Part shown: in pieces, positions 11,159 through 46,421 of the stretch
How positions within the stretch are numbered: position 1 is the first letter of the stretch
How the letters are laid out: each line of letters starts with the position of its first letter
DNA from: a virus
Lineage: Duplodnaviria; Caudoviricetes
DNA length: 58,277 nt
Virus record (IMG/VR): IMGVR_UViG_3300028829_004880
Location: 1-58,277 of that record
Strand: one strand, 5' to 3'
Notes under the pieces: generated by a model
Database searches by the model: none
What the model saw: only the letters and a program-made list of their open reading frames with translations
Told to the model about the DNA's origin: nothing
Made by a program: the position numbers and the translations under genes

Positions 11159-11232
11159 TGGAGGTGACGGGACTCAAACCCGTGGTCTCTTGAGTGCAAG
11201 TCAAGTGCTTTAGTCATCTAAGCTACACCCCC
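11159..11232 (-). tRNA. tRNA-Ala(TGC)
   Basis: cloverleaf, G3:U70, loop CTTGCAC. Confidence 0.9.
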
Positions 11233-11414
11233 ATTATTTATTACCGTTAGTTACCAGAGGATTACATACTGAAATGTTAATTCATTGATAATTAATGATT
11301 TATGTTTTTGGTAACTTACCAGAGGTTACCGTTGGATAATATATTGTCTGTTTGCTATCATAGTAGCACTTTTAGCTAATATATTATCTGTTTTGCTACT
11401 AGAGTAACGTTTTG

Positions 11415-11490
11415 TGGAGACAATGGGAATTGAACCCATCACATAGACATTGCAAATGTCCATCGCCAAAGCCTTGGAACATGTGCCCCC
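11415..11490 (-). tRNA. tRNA-Ala(TGC), atypical D arm
   Basis: G3:U70, loop TTTGCAA. Confidence 0.75.
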
Positions 11491-11568
11491 GAACGCAAGT
11501 GTTTTCTTATCCCATTAAACTAACCGCCCCAGAAGGGACAGTACGGGGCTCGAACCCGTATCTCTTAC
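11491..11568 (-). ncRNA. circularly permuted tRNA-like RNA
   Basis: order: 3' anticodon strand, T arm, acceptor stem closed by TTCT loop, D arm, 5' anticodon strand. Confidence 0.75.
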
Positions 11569-11646
11569 TGGCGGTCTAGGAGGGAGTCAAACCCTCGTTT
11601 TTGAGCAGAGACAGTGCAAATCCACCTTCAAGGGGCTCACTAGACC
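11569..11646 (-). tRNA. tRNA-Asp(GTC), degenerate D and anticodon stems, encoded CCA
   Basis: GGTCTAG/CTAGACC-G-CCA, loop CTGTCTC. Confidence 0.6.
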
Positions 11647-11763
11647 AATTTTGTTAGATTTCGTATCGTTATCACACTTCAATACAAGTCACTTTCAATT
11701 TATCTAACTTACTTCCTATGCTGCCTCTCTGGGCTACTCCCAGCGGCTTTGTGCAACACCGAG

Positions 11764-11835
11764 CGGACGGTGGGGGACTCGAACCCCGACCTCTTGCGTG
11801 ACAGGCAAGTATGCAGCCATTACACCACACCGTCC
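11764..11835 (-). tRNA. tRNA-Asp(GTC), 8/4 fold
   Basis: 8-bp acceptor GGACGGTG/CACCGTCC, 4-bp T stem, loop CTGTCAC. Confidence 0.85.
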
Positions 11836-11881
11836 ATTTAGCAGTATTTTATTTCGTTCAGAACCGCTAGAAACTGACCCT

Positions 11882-11966
11882 TGGTACTGCGTGTGGGAAT
11901 CGAACCCACTCTCCTATAATTGGCTGGGGTGAAAGCCCAGTCGCTCACCCAATTGCATTACGCAGC
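11882..11966 (-). tRNA. tRNA-Glu(TTC) with long variable region
   Basis: CTGGG-CTTTCAC-CCCAG, 14-nt variable region, encoded CCA. Confidence 0.75.
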
Positions 11967-11972
11967 ATTTTG

Positions 11973-12045
11973 TGGTACTAGAGGGACTTGAACCCCCGAC
12001 ACGTGGATTTTCAGTCCACTGCTCTACCAACTGAGCTATAGTACC
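11973..12045 (-). tRNA. tRNA-Phe(GAA)
   Basis: canonical cloverleaf. Confidence 0.92.
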
Positions 12046-12051
12046 ATTTCG

Positions 12052-12124
12052 TCACCCGTAGGGGAGTCGAACCCCTCACTCTGCCGTGAAAGGGCAGCGT
12101 CTTAAACCGATTGACCAACGGGCG
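12052..12124 (-). tRNA. tRNA-Glu(TTC)
   Basis: canonical cloverleaf. Confidence 0.9.
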
Positions 12125-12132
12125 AAATGAAT

Positions 12133-12148
12133 CAAGATGTCAAAGAAC
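12133..12148 (-). promoter_or_regulatory. boxA-like antitermination element GTTCTTTGACATCTTG
   Basis: identical 16-mer at 45121-45136; resembles rrn boxA. Confidence 0.6.
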
Positions 12149-12159
12149 ATGTGTTCTTG

Positions 12160-12232
12160 TGAGGGCAAACGGTATCGAACCGATATCTCTGGGGTTTCAA
12201 TCCAGCGCATAGCCCATCTTTGCTATACCCCC
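12160..12232 (-). tRNA. tRNA-Phe(GAA), divergent
   Basis: cloverleaf with mismatches, loop TTGAAAC. Confidence 0.75.
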
Positions 12233-12246
12233 AAATTAACGAGCAT

Positions 12247-12276
12247 AAAAAAAGCCCGACCTTTATGGTCGAGCTT
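12247..12276 (-). terminator. attenuator terminator of tRNA array 1
   Basis: GCTCGACC-ATAAA-GGTCGGGC + T7. Confidence 0.85.
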
Positions 12277-12301
12277 ATCAATTTTCGTTATATATTTTAC
12301 A

Positions 12302-12391
12302 TTAACTTTTTGACAATATTCGACCACCCTTGGAACAATCTTCCTCGGCTGCAAAAAATGCAAAATCAAATATGTTAGTTACTGTTATCAT
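12302..12391 (-). CDS. leader peptide MITVTNIFDFAFFAAEEDCSKGGRILSKS
   Basis: hand-translated 29-aa ORF between promoter and terminator; run of F/D/A/E codons. Confidence 0.8.
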   Translation of the reverse strand: MITVTNIFDFAFFAAEEDCSKGGRILSKS

Positions 12392-12442
12392 TATTTCTAT
12401 TTTTTTGTGGAACTTCGTGTTCCTTGTTTATTAAATACAATG

Positions 12443-12450
12443 CAAATATA
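12443..12450 (-). promoter_or_regulatory. Bacteroidota-type -7 promoter element TATATTTG (array 1)
   Basis: TAnnTTTG consensus; same motif recurs at e.g. 5974, 7927, 10675, 19419, 45641, 50488, 52448, 53773. Confidence 0.75.
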
Positions 12451-12545
12451 CGAAAGTTATTTGAATTGACAAGTATTTTTTGTAATTATTTTTAAGTTAT
12501 TTTTACTTTCCCAGTGTTTACTGGGGTTTCAGAGCTAAAATATTT

Positions 12546-15514: not shown

Positions 15515-15524
15515 TTTACTAAGT

Positions 15525-17164: not shown

Positions 17165-17194
17165 ACTAATAAATACTACTTAATATGATAAAAG

Positions 17195-17281
17195 TAGGGA
17201 TAATGGGAGTCGAACCCATACGCTAATATTTCAAGCAGTAGCGTTTGAAACTACCATGTCTACCAATTCCAACATACCCCC
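17195..17281 (-). tRNA. tRNA-Leu(CAA)
   Basis: class II cloverleaf, loop TTCAAAC. Confidence 0.85.
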
Positions 17282-17287
17282 ATGTTG

Positions 17288-17371
17288 TACCTAAGGTGGG
17301 ACTCGAACCCACACGCCCTTACGGGCACCAGCTTCTTAGGCTGGCGTGTCTACCAATTCCACCACTTAGGT
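17288..17371 (-). tRNA. tRNA-Leu(AAG)
   Basis: class II cloverleaf, CCAGC-CTAAGAA-GCTGG. Confidence 0.85.
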
Positions 17372-17380
17372 ATATTGTTG

Positions 17381-17469
17381 TACGGGTGGTGGGAATCGAA
17401 CCCACAGGTGTATCTTACGTGTGCCACGGGGTCTAAGCCCGCCAGCTTTACCAATTTGCTCACACCCGC
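17381..17469 (-). tRNA. tRNA-Leu(TAG), atypical variable region
   Basis: GCGGG-CTTAGAC-CCCGT. Confidence 0.8.
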
Positions 17470-17481
17470 ATGTGTGATTTG

Positions 17482-17569
17482 TAGGGATGATGGGAATCGA
17501 ACCCATAATGTCTCTTACGTGTGCCATAGGGTTTAAGCCTACCAACTTTACCAATTTGTTCACACCCCC
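17482..17569 (-). tRNA. tRNA-Leu(TAA), atypical variable region
   Basis: GTAGG-CTTAAAC-CCTAT. Confidence 0.8.
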
Positions 17570-17676
17570 AAGTAACGGTAGCTTATACTCTCAGTACATA
17601 GTGATAGACCACTATAACGTACTTACCCTTTAAGCATGAGCCAGTCTATTCCAACACCCGTTTAGTTGGTGGCTTG

Positions 17677-17756
17677 TAGCGGACCTAGGAGTCGAACCTA
17701 GTATCTCGTGGGTTATGAGCCCAGAATGATTTATATATCCGTTTCACTCGTCCGCA
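17677..17756 (-). tRNA. tRNA-Met(CAT), initiator-like
   Basis: T1:T72 mismatch, GGG/CCC in anticodon stem, enlarged D loop. Confidence 0.75.
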
Positions 17757-17758
17757 AG

Positions 17759-17829
17759 TACCCCCACGTGGAATCGAACCACGGCTTTCTCCATGTAAAA
17801 GAGATGTTCTCCCATTAAACTATGGGGGC
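17759..17829 (-). tRNA. tRNA-Val(TAC)
   Basis: cloverleaf, loop TTTACAT. Confidence 0.85.
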
Positions 17830-17932
17830 ATAAAACAAACATAATACCTCTTCGGTCACAAGTGTCCATTGGTCCAGATTCTTACTGGTGTCCTTGAATG
17901 ATGGGATTTAAACCCAACTTACATTTGTTTAG

Positions 17933-18003
17933 TAACCCTAGACGGATTCGAACCATCGCTTCTTGCATGTAACACAAGGGTGCTCCCGTTACACCATAGG
18001 GTT
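17933..18003 (-). tRNA. tRNA-Val(TAC)
   Basis: cloverleaf, loop GTTACAT; 5' end overlaps HNH stop codon. Confidence 0.8.
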
Positions 18004-18526
18004 ATTTAGAACTTTCAATTTTTGCGTGTCTTATTCTATGACAATTAGAACACAATAACACACATTTGTCTAGTTCATCTTTTATTTTACCCCACTTCTG
18101 GTATTGTATCTTATTCCAGTTTGGGTCCTTTTCATTTGGGTCTAAGTGATGAAAATCAAATACACATTGATAGGTGTTTTCAATATTCAAATCACAATCC
18201 AAACATTGGTCTCCCTTATAATGAACCATTTTAAGTTTAACCCTTTTTATTCTTTTCCCATGATACACATTACTACAGTTTTTACAATAACCACCGTAAC
18301 TATCTCTATTAGACCTTTTATAGAATTCATCTATTGGTTTAATAGTTTCACATCTAGGGCAGAACTTGTCATCACCATACTGTTTATTATGTTGGTTGTG
18401 CTTGGTTTTTAAACCAAACTTCTTTAACCAATACTTTATACTAGTCTGAGAACAATCAAGTTCTTCTGCAATCTGTCTTTGAGACATTCCTGTCTCAATT
18501 AGTGGTTCTAATATTTCTCTTTCCAT
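18002..18526 (-). CDS. HTH + zinc-finger HNH endonuclease
   Basis: N-terminal HTH, CxxC pairs, DFHHLDP...CVLLCSNCHRIRH. Confidence 0.85.
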   Translation of the reverse strand: MEREILEPLIETGMSQRQIAEELDCSQTSIKYWLKKFGLKTKHNQHNKQYGDDKFCPRCETIKPIDEFYKRSNRDSYGGYCKNCSNVYHGKRIKRVKLKMVHYKGDQCLDCDLNIENTYQCVFDFHHLDPNEKDPNWNKIQYQKWGKIKDELDKCVLLCSNCHRIRHAKIESSK

Positions 18527-18555
18527 AACAGTGTTTTATAATAAATATAACTCAC

Positions 18556-18594
18556 TTTCGAAAAAGACACTCTGAACCACTGAGTTACAGATGC
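18556..18594 (-). pseudogene. orphan tRNA 5' half
   Basis: GCATCTG-TA-ACTC-AGTGGTTCA-GAGT with no T arm or 3' acceptor strand; HNH gene follows. Confidence 0.6.
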
Positions 18595-18599
18595 ATTTG

Positions 18600-18687
18600 T
18601 TGCAGTAGTAGGATTCGAACCTACAGTGAGGTTTCAAACCTCGTCCCCCTCCACGGGGGATGTGTATGCCAATTCCACCATACTGCT
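18600..18687 (-). tRNA. Leu-type body with TGG at anticodon position (undetermined)
   Basis: Leu-like D arm, long variable arm, A73; loop CGTGGAG; A1:A72 mismatch. Confidence 0.55.
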
Positions 18688-18716
18688 AAGGTTCTTTGCG
18701 CTTTAGAACCCCTTTG

Positions 18717-18802
18717 TAGCCGAGGTGGGATTCGAACCCACACGGGCATTACTGCCCACTGGATTTTAAGTCCAGCGTGTCTACCAATTCCACCACTCAG
18801 CC
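18717..18802 (-). tRNA. tRNA-Leu(TAA)
   Basis: canonical class II cloverleaf. Confidence 0.92.
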
Positions 18803-18997
18803 ATTTAGGGTGTTTCAACCCTAAAACTTGGTAATTAATTTGTGTGGTGTTTTAACCACTTTTTCAAATTTTTAACTCTTCTTATTTTCTTTATACGAAA
18901 GGCTCTATTAACCTTTTCATGTATGTGTTCTATTTCCTTTTTGGTTAATAAATCACTTTCTTTAGTATCCATTTTCATTTTTAACTCTTATTAGTTG

Positions 18998-19072
18998 AGT
19001 CGGGAGAGGGAATCGAACCCCCATCTATCTGATTTTGCAGACCAGTGCCTAAAGCCATTCGACCATCCCGAC
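18998..19072 (-). tRNA. tRNA-Cys(GCA)
   Basis: loop CTGCAAA, U73. Confidence 0.9.
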
Positions 19073-19229
19073 ATATTTTAATGTTTCACTTCTATTCTCT
19101 TTCCACACTTGACACATTTCTTAATCTCTATATTCTTGGTCCAGAAAAAAACTGTTCTCTCGAATTTATGACTACAAATTGTCGTTCTTATTTTATCTTT
19201 TATTATTTTCATTTCTAATTATTGTGCAT

Positions 19230-19261
19230 AAAAAAATCCGATACTGAATTTCAATATCGGA
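19230..19261 (-). terminator. attenuator terminator of tRNA array 2
   Basis: TCCGATATTGA-AAT-TCAGTATCGGA + T7. Confidence 0.85.
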
Positions 19262-19288: not shown

Positions 19289-19366
19289 TTAACAACACAG
19301 TCCGACACTTACTACTAATAAGACTAGTAGTGAAGAAAGACATAATATGTTGTTAACTGTTTGCAC
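19289..19366 (-). CDS. leader peptide MQTVNNILCLSSLLVLLVVSVGLCC (GTG start)
   Basis: hand-translated 25-aa ORF between promoter (19419-19426) and terminator; L/V/C rich. Confidence 0.75.
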   Translation of the reverse strand: MQTVNNILCLSSLLVLLVVSVGLCC

Positions 19367-19472
19367 TTTTTAAGTTTTTAAGTCGGCACACGAGGCACCT
19401 TGTTTATTAAATACATTGCAAATATACGAAAAACTTTTTAATAAGCAAGTATTTTTTAAATTTATTTTTAAA

Positions 19473-21991: not shown

Positions 21992-22301
21992 CGGTAAGGT
22001 ATATCTTGTAGGAAACTTGGATGAAAATCTATATAAGATTGGTTGGACTAGAGGCGACATTAATAATCGTGTCCTTCAACTCCAAACAGGAAATCCTAAG
22101 AAAATTGAAGCTGTTAATGAATTTGAATCCAAGCATTATGTTAAACTTGAAACATACATGCATAATAGACATGGTAGTAAAAGACAAGAAGGTGAATGGT
22201 TTGAATTAACACAAGAAGATGTCATGAACTTTACCAACGATTGTCAGAGAGGTCATGACACCATTCAAATGCTTGTAGAATCTGGAAATCCATTTATTTA
22301 G
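21984..22301 (+). CDS. GIY-YIG family protein (T5orf172/MUG113-like)
   Basis: VYLV..YKIGWT..R..LQTGNP..E..MH..GEWF. Confidence 0.8.
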   Translation: MNNGKVYLVGNLDENLYKIGWTRGDINNRVLQLQTGNPKKIEAVNEFESKHYVKLETYMHNRHGSKRQEGEWFELTQEDVMNFTNDCQRGHDTIQMLVESGNPFI

Positions 22302-23520
22302 AACCTTCCAACCAATCCAAAAATTTTGTCGCATAAAATCCTTTACGAATCTTAACCAATAACTCATTAACCAATTCTAGGTCAACCTTGTCTGGAAGAC
22401 TTGACTCATCAAAGATGGTATCCATCTTCTCAATTGACTCATCAGCCATTGTGATAAGTTGTTCTAGGTCAACTTCACCACGTCTAATCCCTAATAACTC
22501 CTTAGCATCTGGTCTACGTACAATAATACCCTTTCCAGACCCAATTTCTTGAGCCATTCTGATTAGCCTCATGCAGTGCATCATATTCTTACCATCAATT
22601 TGTTGACCATGAGTCTTCGTATCTACATACCTTTGAGTGTTTCGATTTTCTAACCACTCTTGGTATTCTTTATAGTCCTTACAATGTCTAGTATAACCAT
22701 CCTTATTGTAAGTGAAGATAGCAATTGGATTTAATGGATGACCTAATTGAGTTGTCTTAGGAACCGAAGAAAGTCTAAGTTGGTTTGATTCACCAGCATT
22801 ACTAGAACCACCAACCTTTGTAATACCCTTAAATCCGAATCCGAATGACCTACCCTTTTCTTTTAGATAAGCTTTTCTTTCATCCTTAGATTCTTTTGAT
22901 AGTTGAGGGTGGAAACATCTAGATGCTTCATCATCATAATACAGTGCATACATATCTCTAGCGTTAGGGATATTTACAACACCACAAAACTTTTGTCCAC
23001 GGTAGTCTAAAAATTCCTTCATAGGGATAGTCTTATGACCCTTGATAATATAACAGAAGTCAAGGATTTCTTTACGAGTAACCTTGTCCTTATCATTCTC
23101 CCAATTTTGTTTCTTATTAAGACCCTTCGCTTTCTTGATTTGCTGTCTAGCATATCCACCGAATGAGTTCTTACAACCCTTGGTGATAAATTCAGCCTTG
23201 TGTTCAAGGATGATATCAAATAATGGGTGCTTAGAGATAATACAGTCCTCTGGTGAGTTAAGTAACTCAAGAACCGTTGGATTGTCTGTTCCAAGTAGTT
23301 CAAGGAAACGTCTTATTTCCCATCCCGTATAATCAGCGTTCACATTAAGTTGTTCAATATAACCCGTACCAAGAATGTGTTCTTGTGGTAGGATAAATAC
23401 GAACTTCTTATCAATGTCTGACGTAGGTGTTTGCGTTCCATAGGCTTGTGAACCCACAACTGTTTCAAAGAGAATAAGTCCATTCTCCTTAAGATATTCA
23501 TATGTAATTCCTTTGTTCAT
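22294..23520 (-). CDS. RlaP/NrdC.11-like nucleotidyltransferase (Pol-beta superfamily)
   Basis: VGSQAYGTQTPTSDID, NPTVLELL, KNMMHCMRL motifs. Confidence 0.8.
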   Translation of the reverse strand: MNKGITYEYLKENGLILFETVVGSQAYGTQTPTSDIDKKFVFILPQEHILGTGYIEQLNVNADYTGWEIRRFLELLGTDNPTVLELLNSPEDCIISKHPLFDIILEHKAEFITKGCKNSFGGYARQQIKKAKGLNKKQNWENDKDKVTRKEILDFCYIIKGHKTIPMKEFLDYRGQKFCGVVNIPNARDMYALYYDDEASRCFHPQLSKESKDERKAYLKEKGRSFGFGFKGITKVGGSSNAGESNQLRLSSVPKTTQLGHPLNPIAIFTYNKDGYTRHCKDYKEYQEWLENRNTQRYVDTKTHGQQIDGKNMMHCMRLIRMAQEIGSGKGIIVRRPDAKELLGIRRGEVDLEQLITMADESIEKMDTIFDESSLPDKVDLELVNELLVKIRKGFYATKFLDWLEGSK

Positions 23521-27393: not shown

Positions 27394-28455
27394 TTATAGT
27401 CCTACGTCTTTCATTTCCATCTCAAAGAACCACGTTCTAGCGACCTTTGAAATCTCTCCTTGAATTTCCTTAGGTTCGAATCCGTTACCCATAATGGTAT
27501 CCAATTCTTCCTTTACGATATCACCGACAATCCACTTAAGGAATGGTCCAAGGTTCTTTCTAGTCAAGTCAAGATTCTCCATTCTAAGTTGCTCAAGACC
27601 TTGCTCAAGTCTACCCTCAGTTACAAGGTTAGAAACCAACTCTTTCATGTTGTTGACTCTTTCGATATCAACTGGTGCAAGAGTCTTAGTTTTAGATGAC
27701 TGATGTTTCTCACCCTTCACCTTAAACCAATATCTAGATTTGTTCCACCCTTCGGTGATACATCTCCATACAATACCTTCCCCAACCCCAGAGTTACCAA
27801 ATGATTTACCAACTGGACATTCAGCTTCAATTACATTGGTTAATTCAACCAATTCATTTTGTGATTGTTCTGGATTGTTAAAGTCAATCTTAATCGTATG
27901 TGTTGGGTAATCTAAGATGTTGTAGATTTTATCCTCTGGAAGTTTGATTCTAGATAACTTATCATCATCCAACCATAGGTTATCAATCTTTATTGCAAAG
28001 ATAACAAACATCTTGTCAAGACCATTGAGTGCAACACCCTTTTGGATGTTACCACCACACCATTCACCATAAACTCTGATAACCTCTGGTGTATATCCCA
28101 TATCGTTACCCATTTCCTTTTCAATCTTATTAAGGATTGCTTCGGTGTTGCTAGTATGTGCAAATGCGGCAAATCCAGCATTATCCTTTGTTGGAGTGAT
28201 AATGTTCTTTCTAGATTGTGCATGCATATTATAATCATGCTTAAGCATATCCCATGTATATACAATAGCCGCATTGGTCCCATGTAACTTAACTGTACCC
28301 CTAAACTCAAGTGTTGGAACCTTCTTCGTTAAATCAAATGTTGGTTCACCATTTTCATCTTCACCAGTATAAGTGGCACGATGCTTTACTTGATGAATTA
28401 CCGTTCTAAATTGTTCAATACTAGGAAATTTGTACATTGTTTGTTCCATAATCAA
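27394..28455 (-). CDS. RNA ligase, Rnl2-like
   Basis: KLHGTN motif I, YGEWCG, GEGIVW, FKVKGEKH. Confidence 0.8.
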   Translation of the reverse strand: MIMEQTMYKFPSIEQFRTVIHQVKHRATYTGEDENGEPTFDLTKKVPTLEFRGTVKLHGTNAAIVYTWDMLKHDYNMHAQSRKNIITPTKDNAGFAAFAHTSNTEAILNKIEKEMGNDMGYTPEVIRVYGEWCGGNIQKGVALNGLDKMFVIFAIKIDNLWLDDDKLSRIKLPEDKIYNILDYPTHTIKIDFNNPEQSQNELVELTNVIEAECPVGKSFGNSGVGEGIVWRCITEGWNKSRYWFKVKGEKHQSSKTKTLAPVDIERVNNMKELVSNLVTEGRLEQGLEQLRMENLDLTRKNLGPFLKWIVGDIVKEELDTIMGNGFEPKEIQGEISKVARTWFFEMEMKDVGL

Positions 28456-34618: not shown

Positions 34619-35737
34619 TTATAATACTTTATATAACTTTTTGTTATCGTACTTTCTAAGGTACTCCTTTACTGACTCTACCTTACCATCTTTCATTCCG
34701 AAGAATAATCCACTGTAAGCCTTAAGGTCATCCTTGCCAATCAATTCAAATACCGCCATGGCGAATTTCTTTTGTTCTTTTGGTGTGATGTTCTTTGGTT
34801 TCTTGTCTTGCAACTTATCCCAAGCATCCTCAAGTGTATCAATTAATTTATTGTAACCTTCATAAAGCTTGAATATCTCTTCCTTTCTTTCTGGGAAAGT
34901 AGCGGAGAATTCCTCAATTTCATTAGATTTAACAACGTCCATTATAGCATGTTCTGATGTCTTAGACTTCAAGTGGTGAACCGCAACATATGCTGGGTTC
35001 TTTATCTTCACTCTATTGAAGTCACCATCAACAACAACGTAACCTTCTTCATGAAATGGCATTCCGTCGAAAGTCTTTTCAATATGACCTACGTTGGTTG
35101 CGTTAAGGTCAAATGACTTAACAAGTGGAATTCCAATTGACTCAGAAACCATCTTCATATCCTCGTAAGTTACCTCTTTAAGTGTCTTTCTATTTCTCAT
35201 TGCTAAGAACGTAGCAGAAGACTCCCCATGTGGCTTCACAACGATATTGTATGGAGTAGTTAACTCGAATACGTAAATGTGGTCCTTATCTAATAAACAG
35301 TCATTGAATCCGTACTTTTCAGCAACAGTATTCCAAAACAAATCATTAAATGTTGTACCATACTTGTTATTCACTTCCCCTTCACCTTCGGCTGTACCAG
35401 TAGTAGCAGCGAACCACTTCTCCTTGTTCCAATCGAAATATACTTGTATCATTGTACCATCACACTTTTCAAGTATACGTGCTGTGTTCCAATCTATCTT
35501 TGCAGCATGACCCTCAGCTGAGTTGAAGAACTTTCTAAATGAAAGACATAATATATTCCATGTATCCTTTTCAAGTATAAGTCCTCTACAATCTTGTACC
35601 TCAGAAAACCCCATAGACGATGCTATTTGGTCATACTTGATAAGAACCTTCTTATCGTAGTCCCTAGTCTTCAACTTAAACTCAGCTACTGCCTTATCAA
35701 GTCCATTTTCTTTTATGTATTTGATTATACTTAACAT
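34619..35737 (-). CDS. RNA ligase, T4 Rnl1-like
   Basis: CRGLIL, KFFN, EKCDGT, FELT, EGYVV, RVKIK. Confidence 0.85.
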   Translation of the reverse strand: MLSIIKYIKENGLDKAVAEFKLKTRDYDKKVLIKYDQIASSMGFSEVQDCRGLILEKDTWNILCLSFRKFFNSAEGHAAKIDWNTARILEKCDGTMIQVYFDWNKEKWFAATTGTAEGEGEVNNKYGTTFNDLFWNTVAEKYGFNDCLLDKDHIYVFELTTPYNIVVKPHGESSATFLAMRNRKTLKEVTYEDMKMVSESIGIPLVKSFDLNATNVGHIEKTFDGMPFHEEGYVVVDGDFNRVKIKNPAYVAVHHLKSKTSEHAIMDVVKSNEIEEFSATFPERKEEIFKLYEGYNKLIDTLEDAWDKLQDKKPKNITPKEQKKFAMAVFELIGKDDLKAYSGLFFGMKDGKVESVKEYLRKYDNKKLYKVL

Positions 35738-37040: not shown

Positions 37041-37865
37041 TTATACTATTACTTTAGATTCAACCCATTGGGTTAATGATTTAACATACTTCTCAATATC
37101 TGCATGATAGAAACCAACAGAGTTCATACACCCACACTCAATGATATAGTATCTCATATCACCATCGTCGTGTCTTGTTTCCGCTATATCCATAGCAAAT
37201 ACCTCATGTGGTTGGTATTCCTTGCATCTGTCCTCTACGAACTTAATCATATCTTCTGGGATATCATCACCAGACTTAGAAAGTCTAAAATTATTTCTAT
37301 ATCTTGAAGATGTGATAACCTTCCCATCCACAACATAGTTTCTCCACTCACGTTGTAGGTTATAGGCTGGTCCTAAGACTAATTTAGATTCCATGGTCAT
37401 TGGTGACTCATAATCCATCATTCTCTTAACCATGGACTTTAATTCCTCAACCTCACCAACTTGACCATCGAATTCTTTACCATCACCATCTGGGCGAAGG
37501 AACATATTCAATTGATGACCAAAATCCTCCAACTCAATGAAGTCTTTAACTGTTATAATCTCAGCATCAGAACTCAACATATGTTCACCCCACTTTTCGA
37601 AGTAATTCTCCATTGAAAATGTTTCATGATTATAGAATAACCCAATTGGTTTTAACTTATTATAAAGATTATTCATGAATGTAGTGGAACCGTAATATAT
37701 GTTCTCATACTCATCATCTAATGGGAAATCTGGTAACTCATCTGAAAATGGTACCACAATCACCTCATGATGTGCAATATTAAGTTTATCACAAGCCTCT
37801 TGAAATTGATTTCTATCATTTTCCGCTATTAGATTATTTTGAATAATCCATCGTACTTTCTTCAT
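37041..37865 (-). CDS. ATP-grasp protein (R2K/DUF4343-like)
   Basis: FLRP..DGKEFDG, EWRNYVVDG, MDIA, IIECGCMNSVGFY. Confidence 0.75.
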   Translation of the reverse strand: MKKVRWIIQNNLIAENDRNQFQEACDKLNIAHHEVIVVPFSDELPDFPLDDEYENIYYGSTTFMNNLYNKLKPIGLFYNHETFSMENYFEKWGEHMLSSDAEIITVKDFIELEDFGHQLNMFLRPDGDGKEFDGQVGEVEELKSMVKRMMDYESPMTMESKLVLGPAYNLQREWRNYVVDGKVITSSRYRNNFRLSKSGDDIPEDMIKFVEDRCKEYQPHEVFAMDIAETRHDDGDMRYYIIECGCMNSVGFYHADIEKYVKSLTQWVESKVIV

Positions 37866-38812
37866 TATAATTTGTTTTCAGTAACAACCCCACTAAGGTT
37901 AATATATGAATCCAATTTTTCCCAATTAGTGATTTGGTTAGACATAACTGGCTTCCCACCAGCGTTGACGTTTACCGCTACTGTTACGTGTGGTAAATCG
38001 TTATCTGAATGATATCCTTCTACCTTTACAGCAATAGCCATATCAGATATACCTATCTCAGTAGCTCTAATAGAAACACTATTACCTAAATCACCCTTCA
38101 AATTCTCTGGTAATCCCTTACCATAATTAACTGTCATGTGATGTGCGTAAATCTTCCACCCTTCTGGAATTTGATGTCCTATAGCAGTAAGTAGTTTCTT
38201 CTTAGACGCATCATCTAATACTACCATAGCAATCTTACGTTGCTTATTCTTATACATTGGCTTCGCACCTACAACCTTTTCAACTGTAAGTGGACCTACA
38301 CTCTTATAAGACTGAATCATAGCCTCAATCTTATCCAATGGTACACCATGAGTATTTCTCTCAGCCAATTCCTCAGCTGACACACCACCAGTACCAACTT
38401 CAACGAATTTAATATTCTCGTTAGTATAACCTAATCTTAATGCCGCTTCAACATAATTTTTTGGTTCGTTAGCTTTGATATTGGTATTATCTATAATAAC
38501 TGGTGAGATACCCATAGACATAGACTTCTTAGCCCTATTAAAATTCTCAGAATGTACTTGGGATAATGGTGAGAAATCTTTATTCTCTATCATATCACTA
38601 AAAAACTGACGATAATCAAATTTAGATTCAATAATATCATCTGTTGAATGAATTACTCCAGAACCAACTAATTGTTTGGCTTTGGTAGATTTACCAGAAC
38701 CAGGAATTCCACGCATAATAATCAATACTTGATTTGGTCTCGTCATTGCGAAACCCATTGCATTTACTTCTTTACCTTCTCTAAGGATTTTCTTTATAGA
38801 CTCTTTACTCAT
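37865..38812 (-). CDS. polynucleotide kinase (AAA_33) fused to 2H cyclic phosphodiesterase
   Basis: MRGIPGSGKST, IIDNTN, RNTHGVP; HHMT and PHVT motifs. Confidence 0.8.
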   Translation of the reverse strand: MSKESIKKILREGKEVNAMGFAMTRPNQVLIIMRGIPGSGKSTKAKQLVGSGVIHSTDDIIESKFDYRQFFSDMIENKDFSPLSQVHSENFNRAKKSMSMGISPVIIDNTNIKANEPKNYVEAALRLGYTNENIKFVEVGTGGVSAEELAERNTHGVPLDKIEAMIQSYKSVGPLTVEKVVGAKPMYKNKQRKIAMVVLDDASKKKLLTAIGHQIPEGWKIYAHHMTVNYGKGLPENLKGDLGNSVSIRATEIGISDMAIAVKVEGYHSDNDLPHVTVAVNVNAGGKPVMSNQITNWEKLDSYINLSGVVTENKL

Positions 38813-41262: not shown

Positions 41263-41799
41263 ACTAATAAATACACCTCACTCCAAGGAAATCAAGCTAT
41301 TCTTTCAACTTCAACCTCAACGTCTTCAAGTTTGTTTCTATTATCTACCAATAAACCTTCTAAAGCCTTCTCTATAGTTTTTTGAATAGTTTCTTCGTCG
41401 AAGCTACACCAAGGTGATACAACCTTCACAGTTGCTTTATATACTGTTGCCATAATATTAAGGTTTAATTTTTTACGATGAGGATAAGTAGTATTATTAT
41501 TACTAATAAGCAAGAGTAAATCCCCGTTAACCATCCTCTTATTGATTTAAACTGTTTTTCTGTCATAAACTAAGATTTAATTTCTATTAACTCTTTAATT
41601 GGTTGTTGTGTGAACCATCTTTTGTAAAATGGTAAGTTATACCATTCTAATATTTCTATGTAGTTGGTTAATGCAAATTTTCGCTCGTCTGATACTAATG
41701 TAAATGTCTTAATCATAATTAAGGTTATTTTACAAAGATACGAAATTAAAATTAATAAAACAATTTATTTGGATATAAATGACATCTTGGTCCTTGAAG

Positions 41800-41884
41800 C
41801 GGAGAGAACAGGAATCGAACCTAATACCCTTTCGGGTACCCTTTCTTTAGCAAAGAAGGACGGTCCCAGACCGCATTACTCTCC
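41800..41884 (-). tRNA. tRNA-Ser(GCT), long D stem
   Basis: loop TTGCTAA, long variable arm, G73. Confidence 0.8.
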
Positions 41885-42059
41885 ATTTGAAGTAGTAACT
41901 GGTTTTTCACCAGTATCAGTACTCTAGGGCTTATTTACCGTATCCCATCTCAATTAGGTGTAGGGCTACGGCTACTGATTCATCCCCTCGATAATGGCTG
42001 TTCCTACCAAAACCTTAACGACTTAACTCGTTAGTGATTAATTCACGATACTACTTTTG

Positions 42060-42131
42060 TACCCCCACCTAGACTCGAACTAGGATTATCGGTTTAGAAA
42101 ACCGAGGTTCTATCCCTTGAACTATGGGGGC
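42060..42131 (-). tRNA. tRNA-Arg(TCT)
   Basis: canonical cloverleaf. Confidence 0.88.
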
Positions 42132-42136
42132 ATCAT

Positions 42137-42577
42137 TTATTTATAAAGATATGACCTATAAATCTGTTCACTTACAATACACACCGCCTCAGCAGCATAG
42201 TCAACATTTTTATTGTCACCATAAATGGAAATCATTACATTGTATAAGTTATCATATGTTATCATCAGTGTTCGTACGATATTTCTAACATCTAACTCAT
42301 CTAATATTTCTAACCTTTCCTCTTTAATTGCTTGACCATATATTCTTCTAATAACTGGGAAAGATATAGTATCTAAATCTTCATGTAAATCAGTTGGTAG
42401 TGAAATATTCAACTCTATCAAATATAAAGCAACTTCATCTAAATGTTTAGAGATACTTAAATGAAATTGGCTTGGTAATTGTTCTAATAGACCACTCATT
42501 TCCCAAAACTTTATCATTTCTTCATCATTTTCATGATTCCCAAATTTATCTCTTCCGTATTCTACTAATTCACTCAT
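42137..42577 (-). CDS. protein resembling the N-terminal part of a T4-like major capsid protein
   Basis: KFWEMSGLLEQL and FPVIRRI motifs (recognised by eye). Confidence 0.4.
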   Translation of the reverse strand: MSELVEYGRDKFGNHENDEEMIKFWEMSGLLEQLPSQFHLSISKHLDEVALYLIELNISLPTDLHEDLDTISFPVIRRIYGQAIKEERLEILDELDVRNIVRTLMITYDNLYNVMISIYGDNKNVDYAAEAVCIVSEQIYRSYLYK

Positions 42578-42625
42578 ATCTTTTTCTTTTAATGATACGA
42601 ATTAACAATCGATTTGTAAATAGTT

Positions 42626-42706
42626 GAGACGGTGGAGGGAATCGAACCCACATTTTCAGCTCCTTTTACGGATGACAATTTAGAAAAATGCCTCGGCTAC
42701 ACCGCC
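42626..42706 (-). tRNA. D-armless tRNA-Arg(TCT)-like
   Basis: GGCGGTG/CACCGTC, TAGCCGAG linker, loop TTTCTAA, 23-nt variable region. Confidence 0.6.
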
Positions 42707-42714
42707 ATGTGTTG

Positions 42715-42788
42715 TACACTTACAGGGACTCGAACCCCGAATCTCTCGGTTCGTAGCCGAGTGCTTTATCCAATTAAGCGATAAGTGC
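42715..42788 (-). tRNA. tRNA-Arg(ACG)
   Basis: canonical cloverleaf. Confidence 0.9.
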
Positions 42789-42793
42789 ATTTG

Positions 42794-42866
42794 TGGACCC
42801 ACCCAGAATCAAACTGGGACCCGAAGTTTAGGAAACTTCAATTCTATTCAGTTAAACTATGGTTCC
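42794..42866 (-). tRNA. tRNA-Arg(CCT)
   Basis: GAAGT-TTCCTAA-ACTTC. Confidence 0.8.
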
Positions 42867-42978
42867 ATATACCTAAGATAAAAAGCAGTGTCTAGTTTCA
42901 TACGGTAACTTACTCCTAACTTACTTCCGTGCTGACATACAATAAGGGTTACCACCACGAGTATGCTTCTAGGTATTG

Positions 42979-43048
42979 TACCGAGTACGAGGTTCGAACT
43001 CGCTTAACCATCCATATGAAGGACGGTCCTTTTCCACTAAGCCTCGGC
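42979..43048 (-). tRNA. tRNA-Met(CAT), weak D arm
   Basis: CGTCC-TTCATAT-GGATG. Confidence 0.65.
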
Positions 43049-43060
43049 ATGTGTATATTG

Positions 43061-43132
43061 CTCTAGTGGAGAATTTCGAAATCTCGACCTATCCGTTAAC
43101 AGCGGATTGCTCTGCCTCTGAGCTACACTAGA
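43061..43132 (-). tRNA. tRNA-Asn(GTT)
   Basis: cloverleaf, G73. Confidence 0.88.
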
Positions 43133-43184
43133 ATATTAAAGTGCCAAATTGTTATTTTAATTGGTGATTTGGCACACCAATAAG

Positions 43185-43258
43185 TGGTCCCAGCTGGGCT
43201 CGAACCAGCGACCCTCGCATTATGAGTGCGATACTCTAACCAACTGAGCTATAGGACC
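43185..43258 (-). tRNA. tRNA-CAT (Met or lysidine-type Ile2)
   Basis: canonical cloverleaf, loop CTCATAA. Confidence 0.85.
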
Positions 43259-43278
43259 TGTAAAACATTTCTCTTTTT

Positions 43279-43596
43279 TTAATTTATCATTTCTAACGTA
43301 ATTGCCATCAAAAATGAACCAAGACCAGTACCAAAGAATGTTGCCCATGCATCAACAAGGTCAAATTGACCCTTCTTTAGTAATAAGTCCCAAATAACTT
43401 CCTTAGCTATACCAGCGGCTACACCAGCACCCACACCGACTAACACACCTCTTTCAATGTTATTGAAGGCTGTTCCATCATAAGCGAAGATAAGTCCTAC
43501 TATTACTGAGATACCAAATCCAGCATAGAAATGTAATTTTTTGTCTTTTGGTATTGAACCAATAAAATCTTTAATTTTTTTCATAATTTTTTTCAT
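43279..43596 (-). CDS. small membrane protein
   Basis: DKKLHF..G and KE..WD motifs, TM helices; start moved to 43596 to avoid tRNA overlap. Confidence 0.55.
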   Translation of the reverse strand: MKKIMKKIKDFIGSIPKDKKLHFYAGFGISVIVGLIFAYDGTAFNNIERGVLVGVGAGVAAGIAKEVIWDLLLKKGQFDLVDAWATFFGTGLGSFLMAITLEMIN

Positions 43597-43619
43597 AATA
43601 ATTGTTTTATTATAAATAG

Positions 43620-43699
43620 TCGGGAAAGTGGGATTCGAACCCACGTTTTCAAGTACCGCTACGAATATACATGATATAAGCATGCCTCGCTATATCCCG
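43620..43699 (-). tRNA. D-armless tRNA-Ile(TAT)-like
   Basis: TAGCGAG linker, GCATG-CTTATAT-CATGT, long variable region, canonical T arm. Confidence 0.6.
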
Positions 43700-43790
43700 A
43701 TTGGTGTGCTCATCCTAATGCCTCACATCCCCGAAGGTATGGTTTGCATAACAGGGCTATAGTTCCTGTTCTAAGCGTGGGTAGAACGTG

Positions 43791-43869
43791 TTGCGCTGGT
43801 GGATTCTGAGACCACATTTCCAACACCTTTACGAATATCCAAGTTATCAGCTTGGCTCGGTACAGCGCA
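43791..43869 (-). tRNA. D-armless tRNA-Ile(GAT)-like
   Basis: TACCGAG linker, CCAAG-CTGATAA-CTTGG, long variable region, odd T loop. Confidence 0.55.
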
Positions 43870-43875
43870 ATTTAG

Positions 43876-43958
43876 TTGTGTCGGTGGGAATCGAACCCAC
43901 TTTGTACTTTCGTACCCACGTTATCAGCGTGGTGCCTAAACCATCCAACCCCGACACA
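43876..43958 (-). tRNA. tRNA-Ile(GAT) with variable-arm hairpin
   Basis: CCACG-CTGATAA-CGTGG, GTAC-GAAA-GTAC. Confidence 0.75.
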
Positions 43959-44239
43959 ATGTGGGTGGAAGCCCCATTACTTCCACCTTGTTTTTCTGTT
44001 GTGTTTCCACGTTTTATACATTCTCATTTGGAAACCCATTAACCCAGTACCATGAAACGATACACATTCATCCCAATAAATAGGGTAGTTAATGCTGTAT
44101 TGAATAGCTAAGTATTCTTTACTTGTTTTTGCTTTGTTCAGTTTTGCTCTGTTTCTGTTAATACTCATAAGCTTATAAGTCTGTTGTTTAGCAGACCTTA
44201 AAGCATGTCGAATTCTTTCTTCATAATTTTAAATTTTAG

Positions 44240-44313
44240 CGGACTGACTTGGATTCGAACCAAGACCTTTTCGATTAACAGTCGAAAGCATTTGACCATT
44301 GTGCTACCAGTCC
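44240..44313 (-). tRNA. tRNA-Asn(GTT)
   Basis: cloverleaf, G73. Confidence 0.85.
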
Positions 44314-44370
44314 ATGAAAGAGCTTTGCACTCTATTTGGGGGTCTGGCTTTACCCCTAAGGTTATATGTG

Positions 44371-44444
44371 GGTGACCGACGAGAATCGAACTCGCATTAA
44401 CTGCACCACAAGCAGTCGTGTTAAGCCATTACACTACGGTCACC
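44371..44444 (-). tRNA. tRNA-His(GTG)
   Basis: G-1:C73, loop TTGTGGT. Confidence 0.88.
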
Positions 44445-44658
44445 ATGTCAGTAAACCTGTTTTTGTACAATAAACAAGGTACGTTTATTATTCCAATTTT
44501 GCGTTTACTATCCTGTTTACCAATTCTTTACTTCTCTTAAGTTTATCCTTGATACGTTTGATTTCTTCTTCTGTTGGATTATCGTTTAAGGTATATTCAA
44601 TACCATGTCTCTTACAATAATCAATTACTTCTTTTATATACATAATCTTAATTTTTAG

Positions 44659-44744
44659 CGGAGAGAACTGGACTCGAACCAGCACTACGAATGAACGTAG
44701 AACAACTTTCCAAGCTGCGGCAGTACCATTATGCTTACCTCTCC
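44659..44744 (-). tRNA. tRNA-Ser(GGA)
   Basis: class II, G73. Confidence 0.85.
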
Positions 44745-44803
44745 ATGGGTCCCGTTATAATTTTTACATCTCATCACATCACGGGACCACGGGGATGAGT
44801 TTG

Positions 44804-44898
44804 CGGAGAGAGAGGGATTCGAACCCTCACGCCACCCAGAGGACGAGACGGTTTTCAAAACCGCTACCGTTACCCAGAATCTATCGGTTAACCTCTCC
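44804..44898 (-). tRNA. tRNA-Ser(TGA), enlarged D loop
   Basis: class II, loop TTTGAAA, G73. Confidence 0.8.
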
Positions 44899-44961
44899 GT
44901 TTTGTAGCATTCTAACCTATAAGTTAGACAAGACACCGCTGAGTGCTACACCCAGTCCTCG

Positions 44962-45034
44962 CACAGACGGTAGAAATCGAATCCACCCAGTCGGATTTGG
45001 AATCCAACTCGCCAGCCTTGGGACATTCGCCTGT
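44962..45034 (-). tRNA. tRNA-Trp(CCA), divergent
   Basis: TTGGA-TTCCAAA-TCCGA, G73. Confidence 0.7.
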
Positions 45035-45039
45035 ATTTG

Positions 45040-45112
45040 CACGGGTGGTAGGACTCGAACCTACAGCCAACGGTTTTGGAGACCGCTACTCTACCAATTG
45101 AGCTACACCCGT
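45040..45112 (-). tRNA. tRNA-Trp(CCA)
   Basis: canonical cloverleaf. Confidence 0.9.
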
Positions 45113-45166
45113 GTTTGGACCAAGATGTCAAAGAACTTATTAAAACCTACCGTTGTAGGTTCTGTG

Positions 45167-45238
45167 GGTGTAAGGACGGTATCGAGCCGTCTTCTCTAGA
45201 TTCACAGTCTAACGCTTCACCTTAAAGCTTCAAACACC
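45167..45238 (-). tRNA. tRNA-His(GTG), divergent
   Basis: G-1:C73, loop CTGTGAA, acceptor mismatches. Confidence 0.7.
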
Positions 45239-45438
45239 ATATATTTTAGAGTTTTACAAAAACGACCATCTTTCCATGTTCCTTCTTGAAGGTTAACTCC
45301 CCCTTGTATCCAGACGCATCTGCTATCTTTCTATACTTGTCTACTATCAAATCAAAATTTTCTTTAAAATCTATCATCTTTTCAACTCCTAACTTTCTTC
45401 CTAAATCTCCCTCACTCATATTTCAAATTTTTAAGCAC

Positions 45439-45468
45439 AAAAAAAGCCTTGATATTATATCAAGGCTT
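45439..45468 (-). terminator. attenuator terminator of tRNA array 3
   Basis: GCCTTGATA-TAA-TATCAAGGC + T7. Confidence 0.85.
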
Positions 45469-45492
45469 CGTTAATTTTATATTATTGAATTC

Positions 45493-45591
45493 TTAGAACT
45501 CAATGATGTCATTAAACATACCTTGACCGTTATGGATGCTATTGCGTCTCCAATTACTAATCGAAATCATATGTATGTTTATTGTTCTCAT
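45493..45591 (-). CDS. leader peptide MRTINIHMISISNWRRNSIHNGQGMFNDIIEF
   Basis: hand-translated 32-aa ORF between promoter (45641-45648) and terminator. Confidence 0.8.
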   Translation of the reverse strand: MRTINIHMISISNWRRNSIHNGQGMFNDIIEF

Positions 45592-46421
45592 TTTTCTTTT
45601 TTGTTGTGGGACTATTTGTCCCTTTTAATTAAATACTCTGCAAATATACAAAAGTTATTTCGATTTGTCAAGTATTTTGCAATTTATTTTCAATTTATTT
45701 TAAAAATCGTTGTTTTTAGTGGCTGGTTTCGTGAATACCACTGAAATTACTTGTGGGTCTAAATGTATATTAAAGTATGGAATATCACGATACTTTGCTT
45801 CTAATGTTTTTTTAGCAGCGAATATACTAGGATAATCATTTGGTGATGATACACCAAACTTAACCTTTACTGGAGTTCTCTCATTTGATGGAGAATCAAC
45901 CAAGTGAGTTACATATTTCATTAACTCATCACCATTACCCACCGTGTTATCAGAAGTTATATATGGAGTACCCTCTTTGATATCAGTTTCAGTAGCCATG
46001 GTTGGTAATGATTCTATTGTATTTAAATACCATTCTTGTACTTCATCTGTCATTCTATCATAGTAAACATTAATACTCCATTGCTCACCATTTTGGTCAG
46101 TACCTACGAATGTATCCTCACCAGTCACATCTTCCTTATCTTCGAATGTAACAACACGCTCAGTACCATCTTGGTTACTAATAAACCTTACAGTTGGTGA
46201 TTGATTGTGCCAGCCAACTATCTTAGCTGATGATGCATCATTTGAAGCTAGGCTACTTACACCATCCTCATTGATTCTCTTAATCTTATTGAACGTGTTT
46301 GTGAAGCTTTCAAATATTGCTTTATGTGTATTAGCTCTTAATTTAGCTCTATCTGCGTTGTTATAAAATTTCTTACTTCTCATGATTAAACTCTTTTATT
46401 ATAAATATTGCATTTCTCTTA

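Follow-up and report, generated by a model that had tools for sequence, protein, structure and literature searches.

Leader-peptide attenuators control the enterobacterial his, trp, leu and pheA operons, as well as the thr operon, whose leader holds Thr and Ile codons, and the ilvGMEDA operon, whose leader holds Ile, Leu and Val codons; a protector or pause (1:2) pairing is typical of the trp, his, leu and thr attenuators. In E. coli, the pheM leader attenuator controls the pheST operon, which encodes phenylalanyl-tRNA synthetase. T-box leaders, found before synthetase and amino-acid genes of Gram-positive bacteria, bind uncharged tRNA directly and without a ribosome, with one tRNA per leader. 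Here we describe putative devices of this kind in a viral DNA of 58,277 bp (IMG/VR record IMGVR_UViG_3300028829_004880, Caudoviricetes; the whole record is called the window below), where three tRNA gene arrays each stand behind a short open reading frame (ORF) written largely in the codons of that same array. Based on the parts and their order, the codon/tRNA match and the way in which leaders change along with arrays and antiterminators along with terminators, we consider it likely (probability about 0.8) that these modules are ribosome-mediated transcription attenuators, which would sense the supply of charged tRNA before tRNA genes.

The modules resemble the enterobacterial thr and ilvGMEDA leaders in having a short leader rich in codons of the regulated amino acids, with several amino acids sensed per leader, and a terminator with an overlapping alternative pairing, so that slow decoding would lead to read-through. 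They differ in their cargo, which is tRNA genes and not biosynthetic enzymes, so that the sensed molecule, charged tRNA, is closer to the product; in their breadth, as one leader here has up to 8 amino acids and 11 anticodons and all 20 amino acids are covered jointly; and in being phage-borne, with Bacteroidota-type promoters and no detected protector stem. As with pheM, a codon-matched leader would control a translation component for the same codon, but pheST encodes a synthetase and not tRNAs, it concerns one amino acid, and it is cellular and not viral. With T-box leaders the modules would share the sensing of the state of a specific tRNA and a terminator/antiterminator switch, but the sensing codons here lie in an ORF and no T-box was matched in Rfam.

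An accessory tRNA array that is turned on when translation is impaired, with homing endonucleases beside the arrays as is probably the case here, has been described in Anabaena sp. PCC 7120; this long array (trn operon) is normally silent and is induced under translational stress (PMC8421152), and its control has been attributed to the transcriptional repressor TrcR (PMC10272220). It differs from the present case in that, as far as the accessible text of these papers goes, a single array serves all amino acids and codon-matched leaders are absent. Leader-peptide control of the Anabaena operon was considered as a precedent and dropped, since a search of the main text of PMC8421152 for “attenuat”, “leader” and “terminator” gave no match. 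Phage tRNAs have also been reported as counter-defence against tRNA-targeting host systems (PMC10264068, PMC11464382), which gives a phage a reason to supply tRNAs upon host tRNA cleavage, and the window has RNA ligases and a CCA enzyme; the accessible text of both papers deals with phage tRNA function, whereas conditional transcription of the tRNA genes is not mentioned there. The full-text literature that we searched, with few subscription journals and no supplements, held no description of codon-matched attenuators before tRNA arrays, and the initial annotation of this DNA likewise knew of none for phage tRNA genes. The words “attenuat”, “leader” and “terminator” are absent from the main text of the huge-phage paper PMC7162821, which concerns LR745206.1 and LR756502.1 (see below), and the accessible text of the “moraphage” aquatic jumbo phage paper (PMC12619734) mentions neither leaders nor attenuation.

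Three modules with codon-matched leaders

The same order of parts was read three times on the minus strand of the window: promoter box, 5-bp hairpin, A-rich stretch, short ORF, terminator and tRNA array. This agreed with the initial annotation, which had described the three-fold layout with leaders of 25–32 codons. In module 1, a -7 box of the TAnnTTTG type read from the sequence (12443..12450, with a TTG about 20 nt upstream) is followed by the 5' hairpin (12409..12423; minimum free energy (MFE) of the 5' untranslated region (UTR) -6.1 kcal/mol) and by leader ORF 1, which starts with ATG and has 29 codons plus stop (12302..12391). The 3' part of this leader contains the antiterminator segment (12319..12326; duplex -9.1 kcal/mol), and the intrinsic terminator downstream has an 8-bp G+C-rich stem, a 5-nt loop and a T run (12247..12274; -13.3 kcal/mol). 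Array 1 (11158..12232) then carries tRNAs for Phe, Glu, Phe, Glu, Asp, Ala and Ala. Module 2 has its -7 box at 19419..19426, a 5' hairpin of 5 bp including two G-U pairs (19385..19399; 5' UTR MFE -4.5), a GTG-started leader of 25 codons plus stop (19289..19366), an antiterminator segment at 19300..19310 (duplex -11.4 kcal/mol), and a terminator with an 11-bp stem, a 3-nt loop and a T run (19230..19261; -13.7 kcal/mol), after which array 2 (17194..19072) has Cys, Leu, a doubtful “Pro”, Val, Val and four Leu tRNAs. Module 3 consists of a -7 box (45641..45648), a 5-bp hairpin (45608..45622; 5' UTR MFE -8.5), an ATG-started leader of 32 codons plus stop (45493..45591), an antiterminator segment (45519..45528; duplex -11.4 kcal/mol), a terminator with a 9–12-bp stem, a 3-nt loop and a T run (45438..45469; -10.9 kcal/mol), and array 3 (41799..45237) with His, Trp, Trp, Ser, His, Asn, Ile, a weak Thr, Met, Asn, three Arg and Ser.

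Spacing is nearly constant, as the leaders start 57–60 nt after the promoter box and the terminators lie 47–52 nt past the leader stop codons. A 21-base promoter-proximal pattern, made of the box and the bases just downstream, occurs three times in the window, solely at the modules and with no fourth copy; 0.10 occurrences were expected from shuffles, and 0 of 100 shuffles reached three. When the three modules were aligned, the mean column identity was 68%, with paired changes between their hairpin stems, and all three leaders start Met-x-Thr-Val/Ile, just as the annotation had it. The three modules are paralogues.

In the central part of each leader, most codons are for amino acids carried by the tRNAs of the following array. 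Codons 8–18 of leader 1 are an unbroken run of 11 Phe, Asp, Ala and Glu codons, 14 of the 18 residues of leader 2 from codon 8 are Leu, Cys or Val, and all 20 residues at codons 2–21 of leader 3 belong to the set Arg, Thr, Ile, Asn, His, Met, Ser and Trp. As the control set we used 638 short ORFs of 15–50 codons from the six frames of the window. The run of 20 for the array 3 set and the run of 11 for the array 1 set were reached by the leader alone, and the run of 7 for array 2 was reached by 5 of the 638, the leader among them; the fraction of leader 2 in its array set (0.62) was the sole top value. The enrichment that had been claimed for each leader is therefore extreme among short ORFs. 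The match also extends to anticodons, because cognate leader codons were present for 4/4 anticodons of array 1, 5/7 of array 2 and 9/11 of array 3, with separate codons for separate Arg, Ser, Ile and Leu isoacceptors. Among the 6 permutations of leaders over arrays in the window, the true pairing scored best.

Sorting of the tRNAs by amino acid had been given as A/D/E/F, C/L/V/fMet and H/I/M/N/R/S/W. These sets were recovered, but the fMet was not called, and a doubtful Pro and a weak Thr were added, so that the sorting is real but imperfect. All 7 ARAGORN tRNAs of array 1 are also Rfam matches, and the first His tRNA of array 3 (45167-45237) was found by Rfam only. The “fMet” with a CAT anticodon in array 2 was called in the window by neither ARAGORN nor Rfam, and a CAT-anticodon tRNA is present in the array-2 counterpart of the relatives. 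A CAT loop between G/C runs at about 17680-17757 is probably the source of the earlier label.

Leaders and arrays in relatives and in huge phages

At the DNA level, no relative was obtained when 24 kb of the window were compared with the phage collection by megablast or when module 3 was used in blastn. A search of IMG/VR for the shared promoter-proximal pattern returned 63 stretches, none of which was a homologous module on reading, and neither a search for related loci with the 227-amino-acid protein upstream of module 3 nor tblastn with a 216-amino-acid protein returned relatives. Through the protein upstream of module 1 we obtained one relative in IMG/VR (63% identity), and through the CCA-adding enzyme we obtained 14 (48–77% identity), two of which are complete genomes with terminal repeats, G002 (353,143 bp) and G003 (362,532 bp). 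Compared with these, the window, which is a whole virus record, appears to be about one sixth of a roughly 350-kb jumbo phage genome. The phage is a giant phage, and its hosts are of the Bacteroidota type.

Modules were detected by a rule that required a promoter box, the first ATG or GTG ORF of 15–50 codons, a hairpin with a T run, and downstream tRNAs. The rule gave 31 candidates from 13 stretches of 10 records, and 26 were kept after five had been removed by hand (two did not adjoin an array, one lay within a gene and another within an array, and one had a truncated leader). Stretch L075, which is identical to L074, was left out, and L069 and L070 lie within the G002 and G003 stretches. By array content the 26 modules form four families (A to D) of 7, 7, 9 and 3 members. 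Orthologues of leader 1 were found in G001, G002, G003, G004, G006 and G007, and those of leader 2 in six relatives, where they start with ATG in the same frame. An ATG ORF of 22 codons that overlaps leader 2 in another frame is not conserved. The leader 3 family stands before His/Trp/Ser/Asn/Ile/Met/Arg arrays in G001, G003, G004, G006, G007, L068, L076 and L077.

From the window alone, the initial annotation had predicted a further array with Gly, Lys, Pro, Gln, Thr and Tyr tRNAs behind a leader rich in the same amino acids. This array was present behind an intact matching leader in G003, G004 and G007, and the leader contains a run of 13–16 residues of exactly Pro, Gln, Tyr, Thr, Gly and Lys; in G002 the corresponding leader is 5'-truncated. 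Jointly, the four leaders cover all 20 amino acids. Over the 26 modules, the fraction of residues 6–20 that lie in the own set was 0.76, 0.68, 0.95 and 0.91 for the four families, against a background of 0.23, 0.15, 0.30 and 0.32 and off-diagonal values of 0.00–0.23. Cognate leader codons were found for 160 of 177 anticodons, and the mean anticodon representation was 0.92 for own pairs versus 0.43 when leaders were paired with arrays of other families. For G003, the true pairing of leaders and arrays was the best of 24 permutations. The distance from stop codon to T run was 45–68 nt in 26/26 modules, and a 5' UTR hairpin comparable to those of the window, in which the antiterminator segment is not involved, was seen in 15 of them.

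Comparison of orthologous leaders indicated what is conserved in them. Where codons 6–20 differed, both residues belonged to the set in 76/139, 98/204, 102/152 and 9/11 non-synonymous cases for the four families. For family C, 33 of the 54 synonymous switches needed at least two base changes, with Ser and Arg codons switching boxes. Such replacements point to selection on the identity of the amino acid and not on the RNA sequence. They also bear on a T-box-like, ribosome-free device, in which leader codons would pair with the anticodons of uncharged tRNAs and thereby stabilise the antiterminator. Such a device would agree with the match between codons and array anticodons and with the presence of an antiterminator/terminator pair, but multi-base synonymous switches indicate decoding rather than a fixed RNA surface, a reading frame with start and stop is maintained in every module, and one RNA would have to read up to 11 different anticodons. 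Since Rfam also gave no T-box or riboswitch in the window at gathering scores, or in 7500-54000 at E <= 0.05, we regard this device as extremely improbable.

The C-terminal part of the orthologous leaders varies and the centre keeps its composition. This matters for the view that the leaders are functional micropeptides, for example small hydrophobic or charged effectors, whose likeness to the arrays is secondary. The hydrophobic nature of family B would suit micropeptides, as would family C, which is strongly conserved as a peptide, with the same first 20 residues in the window and in G001 as compared with 63% identity for a neighbouring protein. However, families A, B and D keep composition and not sequence, the C-terminal parts change together with the terminator stem to be paired, and the resemblance of each of four to eight unrelated peptides to the tRNAs next to it would have to be accidental. 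We therefore give the micropeptide explanation hardly any weight.

The partition of tRNAs is fixed in the 350-kb clade, so a stronger test of covariation had to come from more distant genomes. The best GenBank phage matches of the CCA enzyme were uncultured huge phages. In LR745206.1 (634,780 bp) and LR756502.1 (642,428 bp) the arrays are grouped differently, and their leaders match their own arrays; in LR756511.1 (595,163 bp) the tRNAs are unsorted by amino acid and no leader match was found. The groups in the first two genomes are His/Phe/Trp/Lys; Arg/Ser; Glu/Tyr; Ile/Gly/Ala/Met; Asn/Arg/Leu/Val/Ile/Thr/Met; Pro/Asp; and Gln alone. The Gln-only array stands behind a leader of 16–17 codons with a Gln run (LR745206.1 at about 407600-407760, LR756502.1 at about 422930-423050), which would make it a single-amino-acid attenuator in the style of the his leader. 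LR756511.1 carries more than 50 unsorted tRNAs at 231001-294000 and 426001-440000 (stretches L104-L106), save for one Ser/Leu/Tyr group.

Permutation tests were made with the promoter-anchored rule and, using background amino-acid frequencies measured from long ORFs, with a promoter-free rule. By the latter, an ORF was found at the terminators upstream of tRNAs in 3/3 cases in the window, 8/8 in LR745206.1 and 7/7 in LR756502.1. Without the promoter requirement, the family-C module of G003 went undetected, though it is found by the promoter-anchored rule, and one spurious ORF each appeared in G003 and LR745206.1, both of which were kept in the tests. For LR745206.1, the true pairing was the sole one of 720 permutations that reached the observed score, and by the promoter-free rule 2 of 40,320 reached it, the true pairing being one; for LR756502.1, the true pairing was the sole one of 5040 (promoter-free rule). 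For LR756511.1, 64 of 120 permutations reached the score. The annotation had proposed a permutation check and had made its reading depend on covariation of leader and array in related phages: the true pairing came out best of 6, 24, 720 and 5040, and the covariation was found in LR745206.1 and LR756502.1. In these genomes, sorting and leaders go together, and the leaders follow their arrays upon re-sorting.

A putative terminator switch and the proposed mechanism

In all modules, a segment towards the 3' end of the leader can base-pair with the 5' arm of the terminator that belongs to the same module, as had been described for the three modules of the window. Against shuffles, this pairing gave p = 0.007 for module 3, 0.000 for module 2 and 0.063 for module 1, and it beat shuffles (p <= 0.05) in 19/26 modules and in 3/6 modules of LR745206.1. 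The own duplex energies summed to -271.7 kcal/mol versus -188.2 kcal/mol (standard deviation 10.8) when segments and arms were swapped, and 0 of 10,000 permutations reached the own sum. Terminator stems vary widely between modules and the segment changes accordingly; the own leader was the best among unlike terminators for 10 of the 26 modules, and the segment of module 2 paired its own arm better than did any of the 23 leaders of unlike terminators. The segment ends 7–36 nt before the stop codon in 25/26 modules, so a ribosome finishing the ORF would cover the segment or would just have unwound it. Folds of the nascent transcript without the 3' arm formed the antiterminator in 6 of 7 modules examined, modules 1 and 2 included.

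The proposed mechanism is as follows. A Bacteroidota-type promoter would give a transcript that begins with an ORF of 25–32 codons, whose centre consists almost solely of codons read by the tRNAs of the following array, and a segment near the 3' end of this ORF could pair with the 5' arm of the downstream intrinsic terminator. With fast decoding, the ribosome would run over the segment to the stop codon, the terminator hairpin would form and transcription would end before the array. With a scarce charged tRNA, the ribosome would stall upstream, the segment would be free to pair with the 5' arm, and the polymerase would enter the array. Each array would in this way be under negative feedback from the decoding capacity that it supplies, and the 20 amino acids would be split over four channels in this clade and over seven or eight in the two larger phages. 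That the leaders are translated and that ribosome stalling controls termination is what we infer. The trigger could be phage codon-usage demand, host tRNA decay after shut-off during infection, or cleavage by tRNA-targeting defences, and the RNA ligases, the kinase-like protein and the CCA enzyme near the arrays would fit the tRNA-cleavage option.

Several observations weigh against this mechanism. Regarding the switch, a protector (1:2) stem between sensing region and segment was detected in 0/26 modules at p <= 0.05 against shuffles, and the antiterminator is weak or indistinct in 7/26, among them module 1 of the window and module 3 as found in G001 (p 0.52). When the complete leader was folded at equilibrium, the terminator was retained every time in all three modules of the window and in 2/4 modules of G003, whether a ribosome footprint was masked or not. 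Regarding the leaders, each begins with residues outside its set, and 17 of the 177 anticodons are without a cognate leader codon. The core of leader 2 has three Ser codons and one Gly codon, yet the Ser tRNAs are in array 3 and no Gly tRNA was called in the window. Regarding the arrays, the “Pro(TGG)” of array 2 is an 89-nt ARAGORN call unsupported by Rfam, the “Thr(TGT)” of array 3 is weak (33 bits), and several tRNAs of the window have no module upstream, namely Val and Phe at 8783-9146 and Met at 51744-51817. Transfer RNAs are also not the sole cargo, because a minus-strand ORF of 44 codons with two Cys-x-x-Cys pairs (19078..19212) precedes the first tRNA of array 2, and one of 57 codons (45246..45419), conserved at the same place in G002, precedes that of array 3; both would be co-regulated with the arrays. 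In G001, further promoter-like boxes are found past the array 1 terminator, one of them immediately ahead of the first tRNA. In G002, an identical promoter cassette of about 50 nt truncates the 5' ends of two leaders, those of arrays three and four, by which the start codon and the early sensing codons are lost and the antiterminator segment and the terminator are kept. Attenuator control would therefore seem open to bypass or loss. Finally, the 26 modules come from related records and are not 26 independent events, so the independent support consists of the four families and the re-sorted huge phages. The cut leaders of G002 lie at about 154250-154450 and 205700-205880 of the record; if the attenuation model is true, they should read through constitutively.

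The missing protector stem has a further consequence, because an untranslated leader should then also read through, and the device would respond to a general failure of translation. This leads to the idea of a general translation-status sensor, where the switch reports whether ribosomes follow the polymerase and the codons add little. The lack of the stem in all 26 modules speaks for it, as do the ribosome-free nascent folds mentioned above, in which the antiterminator forms by default (6/7), so that any loss of translation would give read-through. It leaves unexplained why leaders are written in the amino acids of their own array, why they follow another sorting in LR745206.1 and LR756502.1, and why replacements stay inside the set. 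As a full explanation we find such a sensor unlikely, and translation-status sensing would more suitably be counted as an additional property of the attenuators than as a competing explanation.

The promoter-like boxes of G001 and the equilibrium folds that keep the terminator would also be expected if the hairpins were constitutive terminators or insulators, the ORFs incidental, and the arrays transcribed from their own promoters. Each module of the window, however, has its promoter directly upstream of the leader, and no other copy of the pattern exists there. ORF presence, length, the 45–68 nt spacing and composition were kept over 26 modules in records whose flanking proteins are 48–77% identical, and neither the codon-match statistics nor the segment/arm covariation are expected of incidental ORFs. 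We consider insulators with incidental ORFs very unlikely.

For the attenuators themselves, the equilibrium folds mean that the switch has to be kinetic. The device should thus be a three-segment, kinetically controlled attenuator, with read-through expected as the default when translation fails. The main sequence-level features of ribosome-mediated attenuation that could be tested were all found save the protector stem, which supports the reading proposed by the annotation. We further think it somewhat more probable than its opposite that these giant phages of Bacteroidota have a multi-channel, ribosome-based gauge of the whole decoding apparatus, in which each leader turns on only the tRNA block that is lacking. 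In such a gauge, every amino acid and most isoacceptors would be tested by a codon in one leader out of a set of four to eight. Host tRNAs lost to shut-off or to cleaving defences would then be replaced selectively, and tRNA sorting would exist because of leader control and co-evolve with it.

It has long been asked why phages carry tRNA genes and how they make use of them. If the attenuation reading is true, the tRNA supply of giant phages would not be constitutive but regulated codon by codon, through the oldest known logic of RNA switches applied to the translation apparatus itself, and there would be an explanation for the otherwise odd distribution of the tRNA genes over separate arrays according to amino acid. 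The modules would offer a testable read-out of the tRNAs that become limiting in infection, whether by codon-usage demand, shut-off or anticodon nucleases. With a length of about 200 nt, they would also be compact natural parts for reporting how fast chosen codons are decoded in Bacteroidota, a group in which, to our knowledge, few regulatory RNA devices have been characterised. The system is present in the already published huge-phage genomes LR745206.1 and LR756502.1.

Two metatranscriptomes gave short contigs that are identical to parts of array 3, in X10 for example 42000-42150, 44576-44726 and 44714-44962 and in X7 for example 42672-42815, 44505-44655 and 44755-44905. They have a depth of 2–6, and DNA carry-over is possible. 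No contig of X7 or X10 lies over the leader 3 region (45436-45763); in that study, 45455-45690 is covered by each of two DNA runs. These contigs show neither transcription nor termination.

Neighbouring genes and further tRNAs

The long ORFs of the window lie almost all on the minus strand, and the best DNA matches to its sequence are marine metagenomes. The TAnnTTTG box, which we take to be the Bacteroidota housekeeping -7 element, occurs 98 times versus 78 expected, mostly on the gene strand and often in intergenic regions. Genes for RNA repair and tRNA maturation cluster between and beside the tRNA arrays: Pfam matches identified a T4 Rnl1-type RNA ligase (34619-35737), an Rnl2-type RNA ligase (27394-28455), an AAA_33 kinase-like protein (37865-38812), an RlaP nucleotidyltransferase (22294-23520) and the CCA-adding enzyme (47448-48623). 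With its two ligases, AAA_33, RlaP, the CCA enzyme and a transfer-messenger RNA (tmRNA), the region appears to be a setting of tRNA repair and translation rescue. The cluster also contains a PARP-domain protein (25426-26742) and an ATP-dependent DNA ligase (30584-31978), and by its domains the whole looks like a tRNA-repair counter-defence set. DnaJ was matched at 56079-57107. As a by-product of the module scan, an ORF was seen just after the Cys/Val/Leu array of G002, whose start presumably carries the HIGH-type motif of class I aminoacyl-tRNA synthetases; possibly it is a leucyl-tRNA synthetase beside Leu tRNAs.

ARAGORN called 32 tRNA genes and one tmRNA in the window, and 31 tRNAs and the tmRNA were found at Rfam gathering scores. 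The tRNAs at 45167-45237 and 7994-8119 were found by Rfam and missed by ARAGORN, and the ARAGORN calls at 18599-18687 (“Pro”), 44961-45034 (“Trp”) and 41799-41884 (“Ser”) had no support from Rfam. The match at 7994-8119 is intron-sized and, like the tmRNA and a weak tRNA-like match of 105 nt at 52075-52179, lies outside the arrays with no module upstream.

Array 2 is interrupted by an ORF (18002-18526) with Pfam matches to an N-terminal helix-turn-helix and with an HNH-like motif read from the sequence, and in G001 a similar endonuclease-like ORF immediately precedes the first tRNA of array 3; both are probably homing endonucleases, such as are known to accompany tRNA arrays. Array 3 contains three small ORFs. 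By eye, stretches with T-arm-like ends that resemble tRNAs and were not called were seen at about 11500-11760, 17570-17760, 42870-43060, 43700-43875 and 44745-44960, and at a looser Rfam threshold 44805-44898 scored 34 bits and 42627-42706 scored 28.8 bits. Two ORF-free regions with many short helices, at about 9150-9780 and 51818-52450, lie upstream of the stand-alone tRNA-Phe and tRNA-Met. Rfam matched nothing in these two regions except the tRNA-like 52075-52179, and they may be new structured RNAs or decayed tRNAs. The tmRNA of the window (53368-53738; Rfam 67.5 bits) has a tag of 9 residues according to ARAGORN, and the tmRNA at the syntenic place in G001 has a tag of 20 residues.

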